From Deltaproteobacteria bacterium TL4 (GTDB lineage: Bacteria; SAR324; NAC60-12), in the NCBI GenBank assembly GCA_051382335.1, contig JBBCAX010000154.1, positions 1 to 34,099 on the forward strand: 34,099 nucleotides of DNA, given 5' to 3'. The notes below the pieces were generated by a model that searched no databases, was not told where the DNA came from, and worked only from the letters and a program-made list of their open reading frames with translations. How positions within the stretch are numbered: the stretch's first letter is position 1; each line of letters opens with the position of its first letter. Position numbers and translations under genes: made by a program. Positions 5,864 to 16,713 of the stretch are shown here, in pieces.

Positions 5864-6166
5864 TTATTCAGTCATGGTACTTTTGAAAGGGGCAAACCAG
5901 GAATAGATTGCTTGGAGCGCAAGGACTTCAGCAAAGTTGTACACCACCTCTCCAATTAAGATAATCCACGAAATCCAGGTATGAAACAGTTCTACAAGAA
6001 TAATCCGTGAGATCTCGGTCACTTGCTGAGTATCTACTTTTTTAAGCGTTCGGACCACCCGGATGGATTTTTCATACAACTGTTTTAACAGTTCTTCTAC
6101 ATCGACATCAAGATTCATATTCACTACTTCAGTTTTGATGGTGATGGAGGGAATCGTCCCCTCCAT
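5864..6166 (-). CDS. Small hypothetical protein with a hydrophobic C-terminal half
   Basis: 100-aa ORF filling the gap between the carboxylase and serA on the same strand. Confidence 0.5.
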   Translation of the reverse strand: MEGTIPSITIKTEVVNMNLDVDVEELLKQLYEKSIRVVRTLKKVDTQQVTEISRIILVELFHTWISWIILIGEVVYNFAEVLALQAIYSWFAPFKSTMTE

Positions 6167-6211: not shown

Positions 6212-9200
6212 TCAGGAAGAGGAACTCGGTTCAACCACAAACAGGAGATCTCCTTGACTCACCGTTTGTCCATTTTCTGCCATAACCCGTTTGACCTGAT
6301 AGCGTGGGGCGTTATAAAGATTTTCGCCGTCGCCGCTTTTGAAGGTTCCCAATGAGATCGTAGAAAATACTTTCATCGACTCTAACAGACACAAGGTACT
6401 TTTAGTATCAATTTCTTTTCCTTCCTCAACAAAGGGCCGTTCTGCGGGTCCATTAGAGCGAAAGAAATTCCCCATCCTTGGCGAAAGCACTTTTAACTCT
6501 TTACTTCCCGGAATTTGAATCCCTTCCGAATCAAGCGGGGGCGTTGAATTTCCAGAGAACTCTTTTGTTTTTTTGATCAAATCCGCGGGTTTGATGCGCT
6601 TTAAAAACCCTTTCAGAAAATTGGTGTCATAATCGCCATTAATAAACATCTCATCATTCAGAATCATTTGCATCAAGGCTTGATTGCTTGAAATTCCATG
6701 AACCCGAACTCTTCCCAAATATTCAAGCAAGCGTTGAATCGCCTCCTCCCTGTTGATGCCCCAGGCAATGATCTGTACAAGCATACTGTCATAAAAGGGA
6801 GAGACCACCGAGTTAGTCTCCACGGAAGTAATGACCCGGACATATTGTTCCTCAGGAAGAAAAAGTTCTGTTATTTTTCCGGGATCCGGCAAAAAGGCTA
6901 ACGTTCCCTCAGGCACTAATTCAACACGTTCCGCATTAATTCGCCACTCAATCGCATGGCCATTTTGAGGAATTTTCAGGTTTTTGATGGAGTGACCTTC
7001 TGCTATTTCAAACTGTTTACGAACCAAATCAATCCCGGTTACCATTTCAGAGACAGGATGTTCCACTTGCAAACGGGTATTCATTTCCATAAAGTAGATC
7101 TTGTGTTCATTGCAATCAAAGATAAACTCCGCCGTTCCCGCACCGATATAGTCGATATCGTGGATTAGCTTTTTGGTGTAGCGCTCCAAATCTTTCATAA
7201 TTTTCGGAGGAACCTCATAAGCTGTTTCTTCAATTATTTTCTGGAAATTACGTTGAATGGAGCAATCCCGGACGCCCAGGGTTTTCGCGTTTTTGTGAGT
7301 ATCTCTCAAGAATTGAACTTCCAGGTGCCTCATGGAAGTGATGAATTTTTCCAGGTAGAGATCCCCATTGCCGAAAGCATTGAAGGCTTCCCGGCTCATC
7401 CGTGAAAAAATGGAAACAAAATCCCTTCGTTCATGAACAACACAAATTCCTTTTCCGCCGCCGCCGTGAGCGGCCTTGATCAAGACAGGGAAACCGATTT
7501 CATCGGCAATACTCAAAGCGTGCATGGGATCCGTCAAAACCCCCTCACTTCCAGGGACGACGGGGATTTGTAAGCGTGTCGCGGTGGCAATGGCATTGGA
7601 TTTATTGCCCATAAGGTTCATGCTTAAAACCTTGGGACCCACAAAATTGAAACCATGCGAGCGACAAATCCGAGCATAAGCGGAAGACTCCGAGAGGAAC
7701 CCTATCCCGGGATGGATGGCGTCTACATTTTCCTGCTCAGCAACCCGAATCACACTCATGCCATTCAAATAGCTGTCTTGAGGGGAGTTCCCTCCAATAC
7801 AAACCAGCCGATCTTTCTCATTCAAGAGTTTTGCCGGGTAACCATCCATATCCGGATCCGACTGAACTAAAACCACATGGATCTCGGAATCATGTGCCGC
7901 TTGAATCAAACGAGCGGCCGTACATCCTCGCGCATGAATCAAAACGCTTTCAATTTTGTTCAAGTGAAAGTGTTGATCATCCGGTTCTTTCTTTTGCTGG
8001 GAGTCTTCCAGTTGTACAGGGGGTTTGTACTCCCCTGCCAATATTTTGGAAATCACCGTTTGCACGGTTAACCGGGCAATCGGAATTTCAGCATCAATTT
8101 GACTGAGACGCGCGTCAATATTTTCGTCAAAAGGGTTATGAACCAAACCCGCCATACTTCCAGAATTGGTTGACAGGTAGTTCGATAAAATCGCATTCAT
8201 GGGCAAGTGACTTTCCACAACCAGTTGTCCGGCAAAGGACATCATGGTTCCAGAGAAATAGTAACTATGAGCCAGAATATGTGTCATAAAACTGGCTTGT
8301 GCGCCTCCCATGCAATCACGGAAACCAAAACAAATAATGGGCAAGTCCCGATCCTTGACAAACCGTGTGATCCGGTCATTCATCACCGCCATTGAGAATA
8401 GCGCCCCAGGACCTTCCTTGGTTTGCATGCCCCCGGAGGAAATAAACATGATCACCGGGAGTTTTTGGCTAGCGCATTGAGTTAATAATTTACAGACTTT
8501 CTCACAGCTTGCCATATCAAAGGCACCTGCCTGAAACTGGGTATTACTAATCACCAAACCAACTCGGTTTCTCATGGTACCATCATGATAAGTGGCAATC
8601 CCCGTAATGGCACCGCAAGGTGCTATACCTTGATCCAGGGCCTGCTCAATGGAGGTTCGGAACCCTGGAAATTGAACAGGGTCCGCCGTCATCCGATCCG
8701 CGTAGAATTCACGGAAGTCCTCAAAAAATTGATCGATGATCATTTGGTGGGTGATCGTTTTCTGTTGTTTGTACTCATTGAGCATTTGTTGAATGAGCAA
8801 ATCTTTATACGCCCGGTCCAAGCGATTCCAGAAATCCTTGATCCCAATGTTCCTCGGTGTGATCTTGCCATAAAAATCAGCTTCATGGTTCTGTGCTCTG
8901 TAGAGTGCGGTCAGTAACCCTGAAAAATAATAACTCACCACCGCGAACAAGGGGGGGCTTAAGCGGGGGAATAAGACTTGCTTCCAATCACTGATGTTTC
9001 TCATGATTTGATCGCAATTCTGTTTGGCAATGAAACTGACCAGCCACTTGAAAAAACGTTGCCGGATCTCCTTGTCTTCGACTTTAAAGGAACTCGTTTT
9101 TAATTCTTGCATCGCCCGTTCAAAGGCATCTTCAAAAAGTATTTCCACAGACGCCTGTGAAATCTGATTGGTTCCCTTTAATTCTTCGGCTATGGTAATC

Positions 9201-10756
9201 ATCCTTTCCATAATGCCGTTATAGAGCAAATCAAAAAGTAGAATATTCTGAAAGTTCTTTTGAAAATACTTATTGATTGCAGGCTTTTTTAGTAAATCCA
9301 GAACGGTTGGGTTATTACGATTATAACTATAAGCCTCGACAGAGACCGTTTGCAGATATTCATAAAGCTGAATTAAATTCTCGCTGGCGTCACCTTTCCA
9401 ATAGTTATAAAGGTACAGCAAGATCTCCCCCGTCAATTCTCCGACTAATCTCTCATAATTTTCTTCAGGATCTCCCATAAAAAAGCGGATGATTTTCCCT
9501 CGTTCTTTTTCGCGTTCTTCAACGGCGTCCAGGAATAACCGGTATTTCCTGTAAATCGTGTCGACGTAACGTATTTCCAAGGGCGTATTGAGCCATTTTT
9601 CGAACTTGTTTTTCCGTTCAGACGCCAGTCTCTGCTGCAACATGCCTTGGGGAATTTTAAAATTACTCAAACGGGAATAACCGGAAATGGATCGACTGCT
9701 TAAACGGTGACGAAGTTTTAGATAGCGTAAAAAACGGTTCACACTTCCAAAAATGTTCAACATGCCTGTCGGCGTCTTATCAGAAATCCGGTTCTCCTCC
9801 AGGAGCAATTCTGAAGGATTCAGGTAGTGGTTAATGTTTTCCTGATAATGTTCAAAAAACGCGTCATTTTCTGCCAGAAAAACTTTGGAGTTTTCTTCAA
9901 TACATTCAACAGCGCTCAAAATCGCTTCTTTCAAATTGGCTAACAAATGGGGTTCTTCAGGCGTGTAGTTGATGATCCCATCAAAATATCCCTGCGCGCA
10001 AAGCTCATAAGAGGAAATTCCAATATACTTGGCGCATTCCTGCCAGGAAAGGTTATGTTTTCTGGCTATATTGCTGAGCCCTTTAGGATGAATGGTATTA
10101 AAAACACCGTTTTTGAGAGAGAGTAAGATATTGGTGGAGGCTAAAGGAATCGCGCCTCCGCTATAGCCATGTCCCCAGACAATACCAACGCTTGGAAGCT
10201 GAAGGTTTGCCATTTCCGCGATAAAATACGAAATACTGTGGGATTGATTATTTAAATTGGCTTCTGCGTCCGCCGCGGCTCCGGGAGTATCCATAAAGGT
10301 GATGAGGGGCATTCCATGAGACGCAAAAAAACGTGCTTTTTCCGCGGCGCGGTGATGATGTCCCGCCCCCCACACGCCTGAGAGGACTTTACGATTCTGT
10401 GCGATAAACCCAAGACGTCGTGTTCTCCCATTGGTGATGAATTCAACCTCTGCCATGTAAAGCGAACCGCACGCCTCTTCGTCGATCATCCGACCTCCAA
10501 GTTGAGGGATTATTTCAGCGGCACTCATGCGCGTAGGGTTTTCCGTAGGGGATACGGTTTGTTGAATGTATTCATCGACATCCAGTTCACTTAACAGTTT
10601 TATCTGTTTTTTAATTTCTTCTTCTTTTACAAGACCTTTCAGCGAAGATTGATCAAAATACTTGGGGCGCTTATCGGGGAGAAAGGATAAATCATTTGAA
10701 ATCGCTTCGGCCTGTAAAAAAAGCGATTGGTTTTTCTTCAACGGTCGGTTACTCAT
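6212..10756 (-). CDS. Single-chain multidomain acyl-CoA (acetyl-CoA-type) carboxylase: CTalpha-linker-CTbeta-biotin carboxylase-BCCP
   Basis: AccA-like PLITFMDTPG...GHGYSGGA; AccD-like DPVQFPG...SSGGMQTKEG...GGAQASF; BC motifs HPGIGFLSE, IKAAHGGGGKG, RDCSIQR, EMNTRLQVEH; BCCP ESMKV and GDLLF. Confidence 0.92.
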   Translation of the reverse strand: MSNRPLKKNQSLFLQAEAISNDLSFLPDKRPKYFDQSSLKGLVKEEEIKKQIKLLSELDVDEYIQQTVSPTENPTRMSAAEIIPQLGGRMIDEEACGSLYMAEVEFITNGRTRRLGFIAQNRKVLSGVWGAGHHHRAAEKARFFASHGMPLITFMDTPGAAADAEANLNNQSHSISYFIAEMANLQLPSVGIVWGHGYSGGAIPLASTNILLSLKNGVFNTIHPKGLSNIARKHNLSWQECAKYIGISSYELCAQGYFDGIINYTPEEPHLLANLKEAILSAVECIEENSKVFLAENDAFFEHYQENINHYLNPSELLLEENRISDKTPTGMLNIFGSVNRFLRYLKLRHRLSSRSISGYSRLSNFKIPQGMLQQRLASERKNKFEKWLNTPLEIRYVDTIYRKYRLFLDAVEEREKERGKIIRFFMGDPEENYERLVGELTGEILLYLYNYWKGDASENLIQLYEYLQTVSVEAYSYNRNNPTVLDLLKKPAINKYFQKNFQNILLFDLLYNGIMERMITIAEELKGTNQISQASVEILFEDAFERAMQELKTSSFKVEDKEIRQRFFKWLVSFIAKQNCDQIMRNISDWKQVLFPRLSPPLFAVVSYYFSGLLTALYRAQNHEADFYGKITPRNIGIKDFWNRLDRAYKDLLIQQMLNEYKQQKTITHQMIIDQFFEDFREFYADRMTADPVQFPGFRTSIEQALDQGIAPCGAITGIATYHDGTMRNRVGLVISNTQFQAGAFDMASCEKVCKLLTQCASQKLPVIMFISSGGMQTKEGPGALFSMAVMNDRITRFVKDRDLPIICFGFRDCMGGAQASFMTHILAHSYYFSGTMMSFAGQLVVESHLPMNAILSNYLSTNSGSMAGLVHNPFDENIDARLSQIDAEIPIARLTVQTVISKILAGEYKPPVQLEDSQQKKEPDDQHFHLNKIESVLIHARGCTAARLIQAAHDSEIHVVLVQSDPDMDGYPAKLLNEKDRLVCIGGNSPQDSYLNGMSVIRVAEQENVDAIHPGIGFLSESSAYARICRSHGFNFVGPKVLSMNLMGNKSNAIATATRLQIPVVPGSEGVLTDPMHALSIADEIGFPVLIKAAHGGGGKGICVVHERRDFVSIFSRMSREAFNAFGNGDLYLEKFITSMRHLEVQFLRDTHKNAKTLGVRDCSIQRNFQKIIEETAYEVPPKIMKDLERYTKKLIHDIDYIGAGTAEFIFDCNEHKIYFMEMNTRLQVEHPVSEMVTGIDLVRKQFEIAEGHSIKNLKIPQNGHAIEWRINAERVELVPEGTLAFLPDPGKITELFLPEEQYVRVITSVETNSVVSPFYDSMLVQIIAWGINREEAIQRLLEYLGRVRVHGISSNQALMQMILNDEMFINGDYDTNFLKGFLKRIKPADLIKKTKEFSGNSTPPLDSEGIQIPGSKELKVLSPRMGNFFRSNGPAERPFVEEGKEIDTKSTLCLLESMKVFSTISLGTFKSGDGENLYNAPRYQVKRVMAENGQTVSQGDLLFVVEPSSSS

Positions 10757-10946
10757 GCTGTCATTTCCTTCATCGCTAGATGATTAAACTGATTTGGAAG
10801 ATCCTGGTTTGTGACTAGTTAGTCGCTGTCGCTTAATAGGTATTAGCCTTGAGGTATTAGGGATAACGTTCTTTGAGGGTTTTTTCCTAATACCTAAAAG
10901 CTATTTCGTGACCGCGAATATTTGGGTTCATGTTGGCCTCATTTGA

Positions 10947-12866
10947 TCATTCGCGCATGAAGACTTCGGGGAATTCTTCATACCCTAGTGAAGGCGAACT
11001 GATTGGAAATAATAAACGGTTTTCTGAAACAGATCTCTGTGCCTTGAAGATAGGGTCATTTTTGTAATTGAATTGTTTTAGGTAATATAAGGCTTTTTCC
11101 GGATTACTCAGTTGTTGAAAAATTATTATGAGACGATTCAAAAAGATGCTTTTCAAAGAATGCTCCATTCCTATCACACTTTCCAGCAGTTCTCGAGCTT
11201 CTTCCCATTTATTTTGACGAATATATAACAGGCTGAGCGCATCAATCAGTTCCAAGTGATCCGGAAAGCGTTCGAGTCCTTGTCGATATACCTTTTGAGC
11301 TTCTTCTTCATTATTTTGGTAGCGGTACATGTCTCCGATCAAACGGTGAATATACCCTTGACCTTCCTTCTTTTCCAGAAAGACCTTGCTCTCCGCCGTT
11401 TCCTTTTGAAATCGACCTAACCGATTCAAGGTCATGGTATGTAAATAATAACTTTCCCAACTGGAGGGATATTTCTGACGTAATTTTTCTGTCAAGGACA
11501 AAACTTTGTTGTAATCTCCCTGGAGATAGAGCACTCGGGCCAGCGAAAATTGAACCAGATCACTGTCAGACAAAACAAGAAGCTGCCGGAGGAGACTTTC
11601 GGCTTTTAAATATTTTTCCTGAATTACGTAGAGATCCGCCTCTAAGCGACGTACTTCCATATTTAAGGGGTCTTTGGCCAAAAGTTGTTGGACTTGCTGT
11701 TCTACGTAAACAATGTCTCCTTTCATTAACTGTCTGCGTAATGAAAGAAGCTGAAAAGCAAGATTAAAAGAGTCCTGTTCCAAGGCTCGATTTAGAGCTA
11801 AATCCCCTTCAAGAAAGTTATTTTGTTTGTAGAAGATCGTCGCCTGTAAATAATAAGCTTCCGGATTCTTGCTATTGACCTCTAACCCACGGGATAACCA
11901 CAGCATGGCTTGCTCCATTTCATCAGCTTGCAGGTGTAACATGGCCAGTTCATTCATCGCATTGATATTCAGCGCGTCTTTTTCAATAATTTGTAACAAG
12001 AGTTGATTGGCTTTGTCGCTCTCTTTACGTTCCAGTAAGATATGGGCATGAATCAACTGCTCTTCAACCCGCAGTTGATTCTGTTTTTCGAGCAGCATAA
12101 TCTGTTCAACCGCGTCAGTCCACTGATGTTGTACGAATAAAACCCGGATCAGTTCCCGTCGGGCCTGAGGTCGTTCCGGAGCCGCGTTGATGAGATCCTG
12201 CGCAAGTGTTTTTGCGTGAAAATAACTTCCCTGCTCGGTATAAATACGAATTTGCAGCAACGCCGCTTCTTGATTATCAGGTTCTAATACCAAAACACGA
12301 TTAATGGACTGCAAGGCATTTTCAAAGGCCCTCCGGTTAAGACTGATCCGGGCCAAGTGATAGAGCGCTTCAACATACCGGGGTTCTTTTTGAAGAACTT
12401 CATCCAGGGAGGCGATGGCCGACTCAGCTTCTCCAATTTTTTCATAAGTCAAGGCCAGTTTCAGGTAGACGGACAGCAATTCCGGACTAATCCGGATGGC
12501 CGAGCTAAAGGCGTTTAAGGCATCACCATAACGTTGCTGCTGAAAAGAAATATCTCCCAGTAACTCAAAATACGCGGGTCTGAGCGGAGATAATTGATTG
12601 GCGATTCGAATGTGTGTTTCCGCTTTGGCGTAAGATTTTTCCTTATAATAGGCCGCGGCCAGTTGAAAATGAACCACAGGATCGTTGGGGTTGGATCTTA
12701 AATTTTTTTCTTGTGCCAAAATATATTCGCTGAGGTTGGTGTTCTCCAAGATCAGTCCCGCTTGTTCCGTGGAGCCTCCTGAGCACCCAAACCCCGTAAA
12801 AATTATGGTGATTACCAAGAATCTGCTCACCCGCTGCCGGCTGCTTGCCCGTGTCCATACTTTCAT
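10947..12866 (-). CDS. Tetratricopeptide-repeat lipoprotein
   Basis: Hydrophobic signal ending GFGC; many TPR-type helical repeats (e.g. YFELLGDISFQQQRYGDALNAFSSAIRISPE). Confidence 0.85.
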   Translation of the reverse strand: MKVWTRASSRQRVSRFLVITIIFTGFGCSGGSTEQAGLILENTNLSEYILAQEKNLRSNPNDPVVHFQLAAAYYKEKSYAKAETHIRIANQLSPLRPAYFELLGDISFQQQRYGDALNAFSSAIRISPELLSVYLKLALTYEKIGEAESAIASLDEVLQKEPRYVEALYHLARISLNRRAFENALQSINRVLVLEPDNQEAALLQIRIYTEQGSYFHAKTLAQDLINAAPERPQARRELIRVLFVQHQWTDAVEQIMLLEKQNQLRVEEQLIHAHILLERKESDKANQLLLQIIEKDALNINAMNELAMLHLQADEMEQAMLWLSRGLEVNSKNPEAYYLQATIFYKQNNFLEGDLALNRALEQDSFNLAFQLLSLRRQLMKGDIVYVEQQVQQLLAKDPLNMEVRRLEADLYVIQEKYLKAESLLRQLLVLSDSDLVQFSLARVLYLQGDYNKVLSLTEKLRQKYPSSWESYYLHTMTLNRLGRFQKETAESKVFLEKKEGQGYIHRLIGDMYRYQNNEEEAQKVYRQGLERFPDHLELIDALSLLYIRQNKWEEARELLESVIGMEHSLKSIFLNRLIIIFQQLSNPEKALYYLKQFNYKNDPIFKAQRSVSENRLLFPISSPSLGYEEFPEVFMRE

Positions 12867-12911
12867 GACTAACTCATTGATCTAAGAAATGTTGTTCATT
12901 GGTGTGACGCC

Positions 12912-13841
12912 TTACAAAGGGGTGGAAGGCACCGAGGGTTCCAGAGAAACAGGGATGATAATGGCTTTCGACGGAGAACTTTCGTTACCTTGAGCGTCAA
13001 CAAGCCTTAAGTGGTAAAGATGGTTATTATTTTGCTGTTGATAATACTCAATAAAAGATCTTCTGAAAGGAAGTCTCTTTTTAGGACCGTCTATTGGCCG
13101 TGGAGACACGTCCTGAGGCAAAATAAAAAAACCGTCCTTAATTTTTGCTTTGAAGGGCTGTTCAGGCCAAGGATAGCCTTGTCTTGTTTTATATAAATTC
13201 ACAGCATAATACAACGAATTTTTTAGCATTTCCTCGCCCGTATTAAATCGCAACACCGCTTTTTCAACGACAGGAACCCATGAAATCATAAACATCGGTA
13301 CCTGATGGAGATCCGAAGACAAACCTGGCAAAAACACAGTTTGCAACCGTTTCAAATGCTTTGAATCCACCAGCCTGATCTGGGGTGCGGGCGCTTTGGG
13401 AAATTCAACAAACCCCTTGAATTGAACCTCTTGTTCCAGGCCTAACGTTTTACCTTCCTTCGTTTGATGCGCGATAGTAAAGTAATGGACGGAGGTATCT
13501 TTATGAATCTGTGGAGGATAATTAAAAACGTGAAGACCTGAGATCTCAAAATGCTGTGAAGGAAAAGGCAGTGTATAAAAACGAAGGGGTTCCGGAGTGC
13601 ACTCCAAACACGTTTTACGCACAACCCGCTCTTGGATGAAAAACCTTTCAACCCCCAGCGTTTCAGGAATAGGTTTGATCATTTCCCAAGATAATCGGAC
13701 TTTCCCCCCTCGTTGCTGAACTTGCAGGTTATGAAAAGTCTTCTCCACTTCAATAATAGGGCTGGGACTGGTCCGATATCCACATGAGGCAAAACTGAGC
13801 ATCAGCAGTAATGACAAGAAAATCCCAAGTTGTTTCATCAT
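12912..13841 (-). CDS. Putative lipoprotein with beta-sandwich (FN3-like) segments
   Basis: MMKQLGIFLSLLLMLSFASC lipoprotein signal, CGYRTSPSP, VRLSW and C-terminal VDAQGNESSPS. The start at 13841 fits better than the called 13940. Confidence 0.65.
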   Translation of the reverse strand: MMKQLGIFLSLLLMLSFASCGYRTSPSPIIEVEKTFHNLQVQQRGGKVRLSWEMIKPIPETLGVERFFIQERVVRKTCLECTPEPLRFYTLPFPSQHFEISGLHVFNYPPQIHKDTSVHYFTIAHQTKEGKTLGLEQEVQFKGFVEFPKAPAPQIRLVDSKHLKRLQTVFLPGLSSDLHQVPMFMISWVPVVEKAVLRFNTGEEMLKNSLYYAVNLYKTRQGYPWPEQPFKAKIKDGFFILPQDVSPRPIDGPKKRLPFRRSFIEYYQQQNNNHLYHLRLVDAQGNESSPSKAIIIPVSLEPSVPSTPL

Positions 13842-14224
13842 GAAAACCTTTCTCGAGGGTACAGCGAATTTTTCTATGCTTTTAAACCTATCCATAAAAA
13901 TCTTCAATCCGTTTTTTAGCGCATGATGATTTTCATTCATCCCCTTTTGCAGGCGCTGGCGGATGAAGGTGAATGAAGACGCCTAAATGCGCTTTGACTC
14001 TCTAAAAACAAAATTTTACTAAAAAATTTTAAAATTAAGGAGAACATCTCTTGCGAACCTTCGTCTGAATGTGTAATAATCATAGAAAGATACCAAATAA
14101 AAAGGGAATTCATTTTCCCAGACAGTCCCGCGTCTTGATTTAAGAACGTAAGCGAAATCTCTAAACCGTTGTTTTGAGCGTTCCAAGGGGATGATTAAAG
14201 AATTCTTATAGCAAAAGAGGGATA

Positions 14225-15012: not shown

Positions 15013-16713
15013 TTGTTTGAAATGAGAATGTCCATGATCGATTTCAGGAAACTAGTTTACCTCCTTTTTGCGGTGTTGCTCCTTTGCCTCACCAGTGGTT
15101 GTCAGTCCAAGGAAAAAGCCGCGGAAAAAATCCCGGCAACAACACCTGAAGTTACCCTCAGTAACGGCTTTGAGCTGGATGACGGAAGTGTTTTTTATGC
15201 GCCGGAAGAAGTAGAGTATGAGTTATCCGCTTCAAAAATGGCGGTCGTTACAGGGGCTTTTAAAGGAGTGACCCTGCATGATAAGACACAGCAAATGTCA
15301 GGGTTTGTCTCAAGAATCAAAGACCTTTCCGAAGATCCCTTGAATACAGGTGCCCTGGTTGATGCGTCGGGAGACGAACTGAACTTTGACAATATTCGTG
15401 AACGAATGACTAAAAAACTCGAAGAGCAAGAATCGATTAAAGAAGTGAGAGGGGTCGCTGTCTCATCAGGCGCGGAAGAAGAAACCATCTTGGACAGTGT
15501 TGGCGGTAATTTTTCTGTCACCACCACGGTTCCGCTAAGTCCAAGCGCGTTATCCGCATTGATTCTGAAAACCATTGGTGTTCATGAACCCGGGGGTAAA
15601 GCGGATAATATCCCGGAGCTGGACAGTAATTTGCTAACAACAGATTTCCGCATGGATTTGGCCATTCTCTATAAAAACAATGAAAACGTCTTTTTGATTG
15701 TTGCCCTAACCACCGATGAACTTTACGAATCCCTGCAAGGCACCATGAACGCGACGGCAAATGTCTTTAATATCGTTGCTCCCGGTTCCTACTTAAAAGC
15801 CGGTGCGGATGAATATACGGCACGTGAACCTGTGACGAATGCTGATTTTTTGGTTGTCATTGATCATTCAGGGAGTATGTTTGAAGAACAGGAATCCATT
15901 GCGAAAAACGCGGCGGCCTTTTTTGATAAGCTGGAAAGCGCGGGCTTTACCTTTAACCTTGGTGTGATTACGACAGGCCCCCAACAAGACAAAGACGGAA
16001 ACATTATCCAGGGCACTCAACTTCGAGGGGAAGGGTTCACTAATTCAAAAGCTTCTTTTCAAAACGCGATTAAAGCGGGAACAACGGGTTCTCCTTCTGA
16101 ATCTGGAATTTTCCACGCGGAGCAGGCTCTAAAAGAAACAGGTTTGGATGAGAAGGGGAAACTTGATCCTAATATTGACAAAGGCAGCGTTGTGACTGCG
16201 GGCTATCCTCGAGCTGGCGCACAGTTGTCGGTCTTGCTGATCAGCGATGAACCCGACCAATACACGTCTTATAGCGATGAGTCGAGACCCTTCAACTTTT
16301 CGAATAATGTTTTTACCGAAAAAGGTTATATTGTCCATGCCATTGTTGCGGACCCAGATTCGGGCTGTTCAGGTGACGGCGGTTCAGCAGGCGGAACCCC
16401 TGACTATAAAACTCTGACACGAAACACAGGGGGAACCTTTGGAAATATTTGTCAGTCCGACTATAGCGCAACGTTAGATATGATTGTCCAACAAGCGGGA
16501 GGCAACTCTTATTCTATCAGCATAGGACGCGCGATCTACTCCCAAATCAAAGTGTCGGTTAACGGCAAAAACGTTTTGAGGAGTTCCACCAATGGATTTC
16601 TCTACAATTCCAATACCCGGAATATTTCTTTTTTAGGTAACGCTGTTCCCACCAAAGGGAGTAAAATTGCAGTTTCTTACACGTATCCCGCCTTGAATCT
16701 TGCCGCACCTTAA
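15013..16713 (+). CDS. von Willebrand factor A domain lipoprotein (start may be ATG 15022, 15028 or 15034)
   Basis: Signal ending LTSGC; MIDAS motif VIDHSGSM, LGVITT and ISDE; C-terminal GFLYNSNTRNISF...P.KGSKIAVSY module. Confidence 0.8.
   Translation: MFEMRMSMIDFRKLVYLLFAVLLLCLTSGCQSKEKAAEKIPATTPEVTLSNGFELDDGSVFYAPEEVEYELSASKMAVVTGAFKGVTLHDKTQQMSGFVSRIKDLSEDPLNTGALVDASGDELNFDNIRERMTKKLEEQESIKEVRGVAVSSGAEEETILDSVGGNFSVTTTVPLSPSALSALILKTIGVHEPGGKADNIPELDSNLLTTDFRMDLAILYKNNENVFLIVALTTDELYESLQGTMNATANVFNIVAPGSYLKAGADEYTAREPVTNADFLVVIDHSGSMFEEQESIAKNAAAFFDKLESAGFTFNLGVITTGPQQDKDGNIIQGTQLRGEGFTNSKASFQNAIKAGTTGSPSESGIFHAEQALKETGLDEKGKLDPNIDKGSVVTAGYPRAGAQLSVLLISDEPDQYTSYSDESRPFNFSNNVFTEKGYIVHAIVADPDSGCSGDGGSAGGTPDYKTLTRNTGGTFGNICQSDYSATLDMIVQQAGGNSYSISIGRAIYSQIKVSVNGKNVLRSSTNGFLYNSNTRNISFLGNAVPTKGSKIAVSYTYPALNLAAP

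Follow-up and report, generated by a model that had tools for sequence, protein, structure and literature searches.

In heteromeric AccABCD, as in E. coli and S. aureus, the modules of acetyl-CoA carboxylase (ACC) lie on four polypeptides, and AccD carries a Zn finger in its N-terminal part. Eukaryotic ACC and bacterial LCC are single chains with the order biotin carboxylase (BC)–BCCP–(central domain)–carboxyltransferase (CT), in which the beta-like CT half comes first. Shewanella oneidensis has another single-chain enzyme, the 1517-aa AccS (SO_0840), which stands in for AccABCD and whose gene was named accS in 2016 (PMC4793157). A 2024 paper (PMC11602165) assigns a biotinylated band of ~170 kDa in Shewanella to AccS, reports that E. 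coli accA/accD/accBC restore growth impaired by low accS, describes a non-eukaryotic domain order that differs from that of eukaryotic single-chain ACC, and limits AccS to a few Gammaproteobacteria. The cryo-EM structure of the S. oneidensis AccS holoenzyme dimer was released on 2025-11-19 as PDB entry 9KKM.

An AccS-type single-chain carboxylase

In the window, which is the whole 34,099-nt stretch of DNA analysed here (zero N), the minus strand at 6212..10756 holds a stop-free ORF with an ATG start that encodes a 1514-aa accS-type single-chain acetyl-CoA carboxylase. A candidate Shine-Dalgarno-like AAGGA, picked out by reading the sequence, lies 9 nt 5′ of the ATG (10766..10770, minus strand). 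The original prediction that this single ORF carries four ACC components in the order CTα–CTβ–BC–BCCP was borne out by ordered Pfam and NCBIfam matches and by a collinear, single-stretch alignment with PDB entries 9KKM/9W4A ('AccADCB'; 1450.5 bits, aa 10-1511 versus 17-1515); the runner-up PDB match reached 347 bits and covered BC only. The CT half alone matched 9KKM/9W4A with E 6e-247. An AF2 model of aa 1-930 (pLDDT 87.7) likewise matched 9KKM by Foldseek (E 1.5e-71, TM 0.82, 43% identity) and by VIA (Z 53.5, 866 residues aligned, rmsd 4.5). The BC–BCCP–CT, beta-first order was not encountered; the matches run CTα–CTβ–BC–BCCP.

The host assembly comprises 445 contigs (100% complete, 2.61% contamination), which could suggest that the ORF arose by misassembly or that separate acc genes were joined by chance not long ago. 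However, 1129 homologues of the CT half were found, with 111 of the 120 listed (query included) longer than 1450 aa; a solved structure spans the same collinear chain; and the gene occurs throughout the order. Misassembly, a possibility raised alongside the original prediction, is thus very unlikely, and we give the artefact reading practically no weight. Among matches to the middle module shorter than 832 aa (20 proteins), which might have represented a split AccS, the 5 inspected were fragments of this architecture, truncated or apparently frameshifted, and gave no hint of a split form.

The original prediction went further and saw here an independently fused carboxylase class, leaving it open whether this had already been characterised. 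Neither NCBIfam nor Pfam holds a model spanning the whole 1514-aa protein or its middle module, and the literature searched, which covers few subscription journals, yielded no publication on the 9KKM structure; both points could be taken in favour of an undescribed class. Against it, accS was named in 2016 and its unusual domain order stated in 2024 (PMC4793157, PMC11602165); the gene has been studied genetically there, and the PDB entries 9KKM and 9W4A exist. The chance of an undescribed class is therefore vanishingly small: the CTα–CTβ–BC–BCCP architecture is genuine but already known as AccS/AccADCB, and with the architecture already named, genetically studied and solved, the finding itself matters little. 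Homologues occur in SAR324, PVC bacteria and Desulfuromonadales. The range of AccS is thus wider than stated in the 2024 paper (PMC11602165), a modest novelty; titles and abstract openings of the literature searched contained no link between SAR324 and AccS.

Two CT halves around a helical middle module

CT-alpha (AccA-like, about aa 75-292; 9881..10534, minus strand) matched Pfam ACCA, NCBIfam AccA_sub and TIGR00513, the ACCA/accA match covering aa 141-292 (Pfam E 4e-24; NCBIfam E 5e-28). Its oxyanion motif YSGG occupies aa 198-201 (10154-10165) and is kept in 110/111 full-length proteins. CT-beta (AccD-like, about aa 669-910; 8027..8752, minus strand) was recognized by the accD model TIGR00515 at aa 680-850 (E 1.2e-10), and its MGG motif (aa 816-818; 8303-8311) is kept in 109 of the 111. 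As predicted, CT-beta lacks the Zn finger: the accD profile alignment begins at profile position 70-71 of 285, aa 582-713 contain no Cys, and no Cys cluster precedes the CT-beta core.

Outside AccS, the best PDB matches of the two halves were 2F9I_A (E 2.6e-14) and, for CT-beta, 2F9I_B (E 8.8e-13). In VIA comparisons, the CT gave Z 27-28 to AccA chains versus about 17 to eukaryotic CT, and eukaryotic/LCC CT superposed on both CT halves together only at rmsd 16-17 Å. The CT halves are thus closest to stand-alone AccA/AccD, consistent with a fusion event separate from those behind eukaryotic ACC and LCC and with the original prediction of an independently fused carboxylase in which CT leads and alpha precedes beta. 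With heteromeric AccABCD, which supplies the nearest non-AccS relatives of each domain, the protein shares chemistry and modules; it differs from that system in being a single ORF without Zn finger and in having a middle module, and its matches to canonical acc subunit models all fall under the curated cut-offs.

The original prediction left unnamed a module of ~375 aa between the CT halves (aa 293-668; 8753..9880, minus strand), which is AccS-specific and all-helical in both AF2 models. It superposed on 9KKM 380-675 with Z 27.7 (rmsd 2.5, 277 residues aligned) and matched it by Foldseek with E 1.3e-14. Among the 48,161 chains compared, 9KKM was the sole structural match (runner-up Z 4.9), which does not by itself prove a unique fold; the ESM Atlas gave no usable match. 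The protein resembles eukaryotic ACC and bacterial LCC in having all modules on one chain, but their central domain is absent among the structural matches of the middle module. A middle-module profile search of 1.84 billion representatives returned 119 matches. When 14 long ones were scanned for occurrence outside AccS, 12 had ACCA before BC; the remaining 2 were an N-terminally truncated AccS and a PKS (P0258).

BC, BCCP and a predicted catalytic cycle

A likely flexible linker (aa 911-934; 7955..8026, minus strand) joins CT-beta to BC (aa 935-1385; 6602..7954, minus strand); its pLDDT falls below 50 across aa 913-930, which form the truncated end of the model. Within BC, matches to Biotin_carb_N (935-1043), CPSase_L_D2 (1052-1258) and Biotin_carb_C (1270-1382) were accompanied by intact GGGGKG (aa 1098-1103), QK (aa 1172-1173), EMNTRLQVEH (aa 1224-1233) and RINAE (aa 1272-1276) motifs. 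The ANRGE present in 2VPQ is replaced by an AccS-type HARGC, common to 9KKM and found in 93/111 full-length proteins. BCCP (aa 1418-1509; 6230..6505, minus strand) was delimited by Pfam PF00364 (Biotin_lipoyl), TIGR00531 and the alignment to 9KKM. Its motif ESMKV holds the predicted biotinyl-lysine, Lys1462 (codon AAA, 6371..6373, minus strand), and E-x-M-K occurs in all 111 full-length proteins. The CT Gly-Gly motifs, the BC catalytic motifs and Lys1462 were all found at the predicted places.

From family knowledge, BirA, whose gene is present in the host (TIGR00121, 167 bits versus a cut-off of 83), would biotinylate Lys1462; BC would carboxylate this biotin with ATP and bicarbonate; and the C-terminal BCCP would swing over to the CT site and there hand the carboxyl group on to acetyl-CoA. 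Going by the title of the 9KKM entry, two chains would dimerise and likely rebuild an alpha2-beta2 CT core, and the helical middle module may act as a scaffold. Yeast ACC is also a dimer, as the title of 5CSL states.

A probable order-wide replacement of AccABCD

The protein resembles Shewanella AccS in length, domain order, helical middle module, lack of a Zn finger, HARGC start of BC and extended BCCP segment after the MK motif, and also as the genome's replacement for AccABCD. It differs in sequence (43-44% identity over aa 1-930), in its biotin motif (ESMKV versus EAMKM) and in its host, which named homologues and a tree place in the SAR324 lineage, as against Gammaproteobacteria. In Shewanella, a divergent LysR-type activator gene, accR, adjoins accS; here the 24 window proteins scanned gave no LysR match, and no AccR-like regulator adjoins the ORF. 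Its upstream neighbour is a same-strand TPR protein (10947-12866), and downstream lie a 100-aa ORF and then serA. Promoter and terminator scans stayed at chance level (7 versus 8.6 expected and 7 versus 5.9 expected).

The host genome (100% complete) has no accA or accD above cut-off, which answers the question, posed with the original prediction, of whether separate accABCD genes exist. Its other two BC domains lie within catabolic-looking clusters, and its third CT resembles the alpha subunit of methylmalonyl-CoA decarboxylase. Canonical accA or accD was found in 0/41 genomes (the host's own and 40 relatives; controls passed in 7 and 6 of 14), and 38 of the 40 relatives have an accS-type gene, which in the reduced genomes G027 and G032 (1.6-1.7 Mb) is the only CT match. 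The AccS middle module was detected in 60/63 other genomes of the same order but in none of 24 genomes from other orders (canonical accA being present in 17 of these 24), so that accS-type gene and accA show a complementary distribution across the phylum. Two genomes of the same order, G007 (92% complete) and G036 (80%), have neither gene. The lack of canonical accA/accD in the host, together with the order-restricted distribution, makes it very likely that the accS-type protein is the housekeeping ACC; it is likely the usual source of the malonyl-CoA that this bacterium needs to make fatty acids.

The same fold and family could also serve a broad acetyl-/propionyl-CoA carboxylase that additionally makes methylmalonyl-CoA for polyketide synthases or anaplerosis. 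The host genome encodes several PKS megasynthases, database names of homologues (automatic labels) include 'acetyl/propionyl-CoA carboxylase', and the CT half, at 43-44% identity to its counterpart in Shewanella AccS, could have shifted in acyl-CoA preference. We nevertheless consider such breadth improbable: the CT halves are nearer AccA/AccD than PCC beta, and the gene is retained in small genomes without another CT match (G027, G032, G033, G037, G038), which fits an essential acetyl-CoA role. The protein is with high probability an orthologue of Shewanella AccS and likely the sole ACC of the bacterium, providing malonyl-CoA for lipid synthesis.

AccS-type proteins are an annotation trap. 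The accA/accD models miss them at cut-off, and NCBI labels homologous proteins 'ATP-grasp domain-containing protein', so SAR324 genomes can look ACC-less. An orthologue of ~44% identity would be usable for comparative enzymology or for engineering a one-gene malonyl-CoA supply.

Malonyl-CoA loading

Elsewhere in the host genome lie acpP-fabF, fabG, fabZ, plsX and a pfa-type cluster. In Shewanella, both FabD and an additional accB are present (PMC4793157); here neither a stand-alone FabD nor an accB-type gene was identified in the genome. The missing stand-alone FabD suggests that the step after malonyl-CoA is non-canonical. Titles and abstract openings of the literature searched held no link between SAR324 and FabD loss. 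We lean slightly towards a scenario in which AccS, a multi-phylum ACC, displaced AccABCD at the base of the SAR324 order without the Shewanella regulator, and FabD was replaced by a PfaA transacylase. A PfaA malonyl transacylase, acting within the Pfa synthase or as a stand-alone protein of ~430 aa, would then take over the loading of malonyl-CoA; if true, the replacement would be the natural counterpart of a bypass that only laboratory mutants have shown to date. Across the host's family, canonical FabD is mostly missing and PfaA-type transacylases occur in its place.

A single-chain carboxylase of the AccS family

The accS-type gene is a single stop-free ORF of 1514 aa on the minus strand of the window (6212..10756). 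Pfam and NCBIfam scans assigned aa 141-292 to an AccA-like domain, aa 680-850 to an AccD-like one, aa 935-1385 to biotin carboxylase (BC) and aa 1418-1509 to a biotinyl domain; the uninterrupted frame and these positions confirm the CTα–CTβ–BC–BCCP order that had been proposed for a one-ORF carboxylase. Every motif named in the original prediction was found where claimed, including Lys1462 (6371-6373), and the expected lack of a Zn finger in CTβ was borne out, because aa 582-713 are free of Cys. Between the two CT halves lies a helical stretch of ~375 aa (aa 293-668), here called the middle module, which gave zero matches in the Pfam and NCBIfam scans.

A PDB sequence search matched entries 9KKM and 9W4A ('Acetyl-CoA carboxylase multifunctional enzyme AccADCB', 1517 aa) over aa 10-1511 in a single stretch (1450.5 bits), with the runner-up covering BC only (347 bits). 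The BC–BCCP half is collinear with that of Shewanella AccS (9KKM), with no reordering, and the two proteins share the HARGC start of BC and an extended BCCP segment. An AlphaFold model of aa 1-930, built on a 101-sequence alignment (pLDDT 87.7, pTM 0.86), matched 9KKM in both Foldseek (E 1.5e-71, TM 0.82) and VIA (Z 53.5, 866 residues, rmsd 4.5, 44% identity). Modelled alone, the middle module aligned with 9KKM 380-675 (Z 27.7, rmsd 2.5, 277 aligned), and no other fold match to it exceeded Z 4.9 among 48,161 chains. Entry 9KKM, released on 2025-11-19, is titled 'cryo-EM structure of acetyl-CoA carboxyltransferase holoenzyme dimer from Shewanella oneidensis, mutant E1238A'; our literature search found no paper on this structure. 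Its chain A has Ala in place of the conserved Glu in the EMNTRLQVEH motif of BC, an engineered change (E1238A) according to the title, whereas the window protein keeps the Glu.

Passages of PMC4793157 (2016) describe the S. oneidensis ACC as the product of one gene, accS (SO_0840, 1517 aa), that replaces AccABCD, and a passage of PMC11602165 (2024) notes that its domain order is unlike that of eukaryotic ACCases. The reading as a fused carboxylase stands but the proposal of a new class does not, since the class is already described, as AccS in both papers and as AccADCB in 9KKM; the window protein is a new member of a described family.

Six homologues of ~1630-1640 aa (P0088, P0100, P0106, P0111, P0188 and P0199, two of them named Thalassolituus) matched in two stretches, a pattern that points to an extra insert of ~110-120 aa in the middle module. 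Another protein, P0258 (1269 aa), has an N-terminal piece like the AccS middle module (E 3.5e-12) followed by PKS AT-DH-methyltransferase, and may be a chimeric gene call.

Carboxylases and fatty-acid initiation in the genome

The genome that carries the window (6.59 Mb, 445 contigs, 100% complete, 2.61% contamination) has no accA or accD above the curated cut-offs. Its three BC C-terminal domains belong to the window protein and to two ~665-aa BC-BCCP proteins (contigs C248 and C62), each adjoined by PCC/MCC-type CT and acyl-CoA dehydrogenase-like ORFs; judging by N-terminal sequences, these clusters look MCC-like and atu-like, and catabolic. A further CT, on contig C50, resembles the alpha subunit of methylmalonyl-CoA decarboxylase (794 bits, under the 999 cut-off) and is adjoined by a small BCCP. 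Both birA and fabF scored above cut-off, the latter adjoining acpP, and fabG, plsX and fabZ were located by tblastn. Judged by gene content, the lineage very likely relies on AccS as its housekeeping ACC.

Searches of this genome with TIGR00128, PF00698 and tblastn (queried with five FabD proteins from relatives) revealed no stand-alone FabD, the only matches being AT domains within megasynthases. Canonical fabD scored above cut-off in 15/16 sister-family genomes versus 2/24 of the window's family. Four relatives (G003, G005, G006 and G015) encode stand-alone proteins of 399-456 aa that share 44-49% identity with the transacylase region of PfaA from the window's genome, and the three stand-alone transacylases scanned matched the PfaA model at positions ~481-920. 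Transacylases of this type lie inside PfaA (C289:4230-21513) and, as stand-alone genes, at loci L062:9297-10664, L063:7745-8941, L064:6956-8242 and L065:6397-7722. It is possible that they are a natural FabD replacement; as a laboratory precedent, PMC8174602 shows mutants of Photobacterium and E. coli in which pfa genes can take the place of fabD. FabH was likewise not found above the curated cut-off (best 189.7 versus 292.1 bits; candidates at C52:604-1668, C68:949-2055 and C388:14994-16127), and therefore fatty-acid initiation may also be non-canonical. In one relative, G033, identical fabD matches at identical coordinates on contigs C6 and C11 suggest a duplicated contig.

Distribution and phylogeny

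The CT half was present in 38/40 sampled relatives, and canonical accA and accD scored above cut-off in 0/41 genomes versus 7/14 and 6/14 control genomes, respectively. Among 88 genomes of the phylum, which are kin and not independent, the middle module occurred in the window's own genome, in 43/44 and 17/19 genomes from the two families of the order, but in 0/24 genomes of other orders; canonical accA was found in 17 of those 24, and the other 7 had no accA match at E 1e-10. Three genomes run counter to the pattern: G007 (92% complete) and G036 (80%) show neither middle module nor accA, and all that G043 (61%) shows is an accA-like piece within a 407-aa frame. In seven genomes of another order of the class (G074-G080, 88-93% complete), neither the middle module nor an accA match (E 1e-10) was found. 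In-frame stops occur in the AccS copies of G013 (C34:16694-19435, one TGA) and G056 (C1:431956-433062, one TAG and two TAA), possibly through assembly errors.

A passage of PMC11602165 describes AccS homologues as confined to Shewanella and a few gammaproteobacterial genera. Our protein search returned 1129 matches among 8000 candidates scored, with names, mostly from MAGs, that include the SAR324 cluster (52-63% identity), Lambdaproteobacteria, Planctomycetota, Verrucomicrobiota, Lentisphaerota, Desulfuromonadales, Thalassolituus, Methylacidiphilales and Oceanospirillaceae. Going by these matches, the host itself probably belongs to SAR324. In a midpoint-rooted FastTree phylogeny of 62 selected full-length proteins without Shewanella, all SAR324-labelled sequences formed one clade (support 1.0) with two subclades matching the two families, the window protein falling in the first. 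The tree fits vertical inheritance within the order and does not establish donors.

Proposed mechanism

To the observed parts, their order, motifs and fold, and the observed absence of a canonical alternative, we add a mechanism modelled on established biotin-carboxylase chemistry. Lys1462 would be biotinylated, BC would carboxylate the biotin using ATP and bicarbonate, and the tethered BCCP would carry the carboxyl to the CT site, which has two Gly-Gly motifs, yielding malonyl-CoA. By analogy with the title of 9KKM, the protein would be a homodimer; the CT sites may form between chains, with the middle module as a scaffold.

Gene neighbourhood

Immediately upstream of accS on the same strand (10947-13940) are genes for a 639-aa TPR protein and a 342-aa lipoprotein-like product, the latter without a Pfam match. 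This pair accompanies accS in 4/11 relative loci inspected, and the remaining neighbours vary. Downstream are a 100-aa ORF (5864-6166), with no Pfam or NCBIfam match, and then serA; no LysR gene adjoins accS in the window. Farther away, a 566-aa lipoprotein-like ORF (15013-16713) has weak CglD/MIDAS-type adhesin similarity, below cut-off, and at 910-1619 a 109-aa ORF overlaps a 127-aa PemK/MazF-like ORF (PF02452, E 3.5e-12), the two being a likely type II toxin-antitoxin pair.
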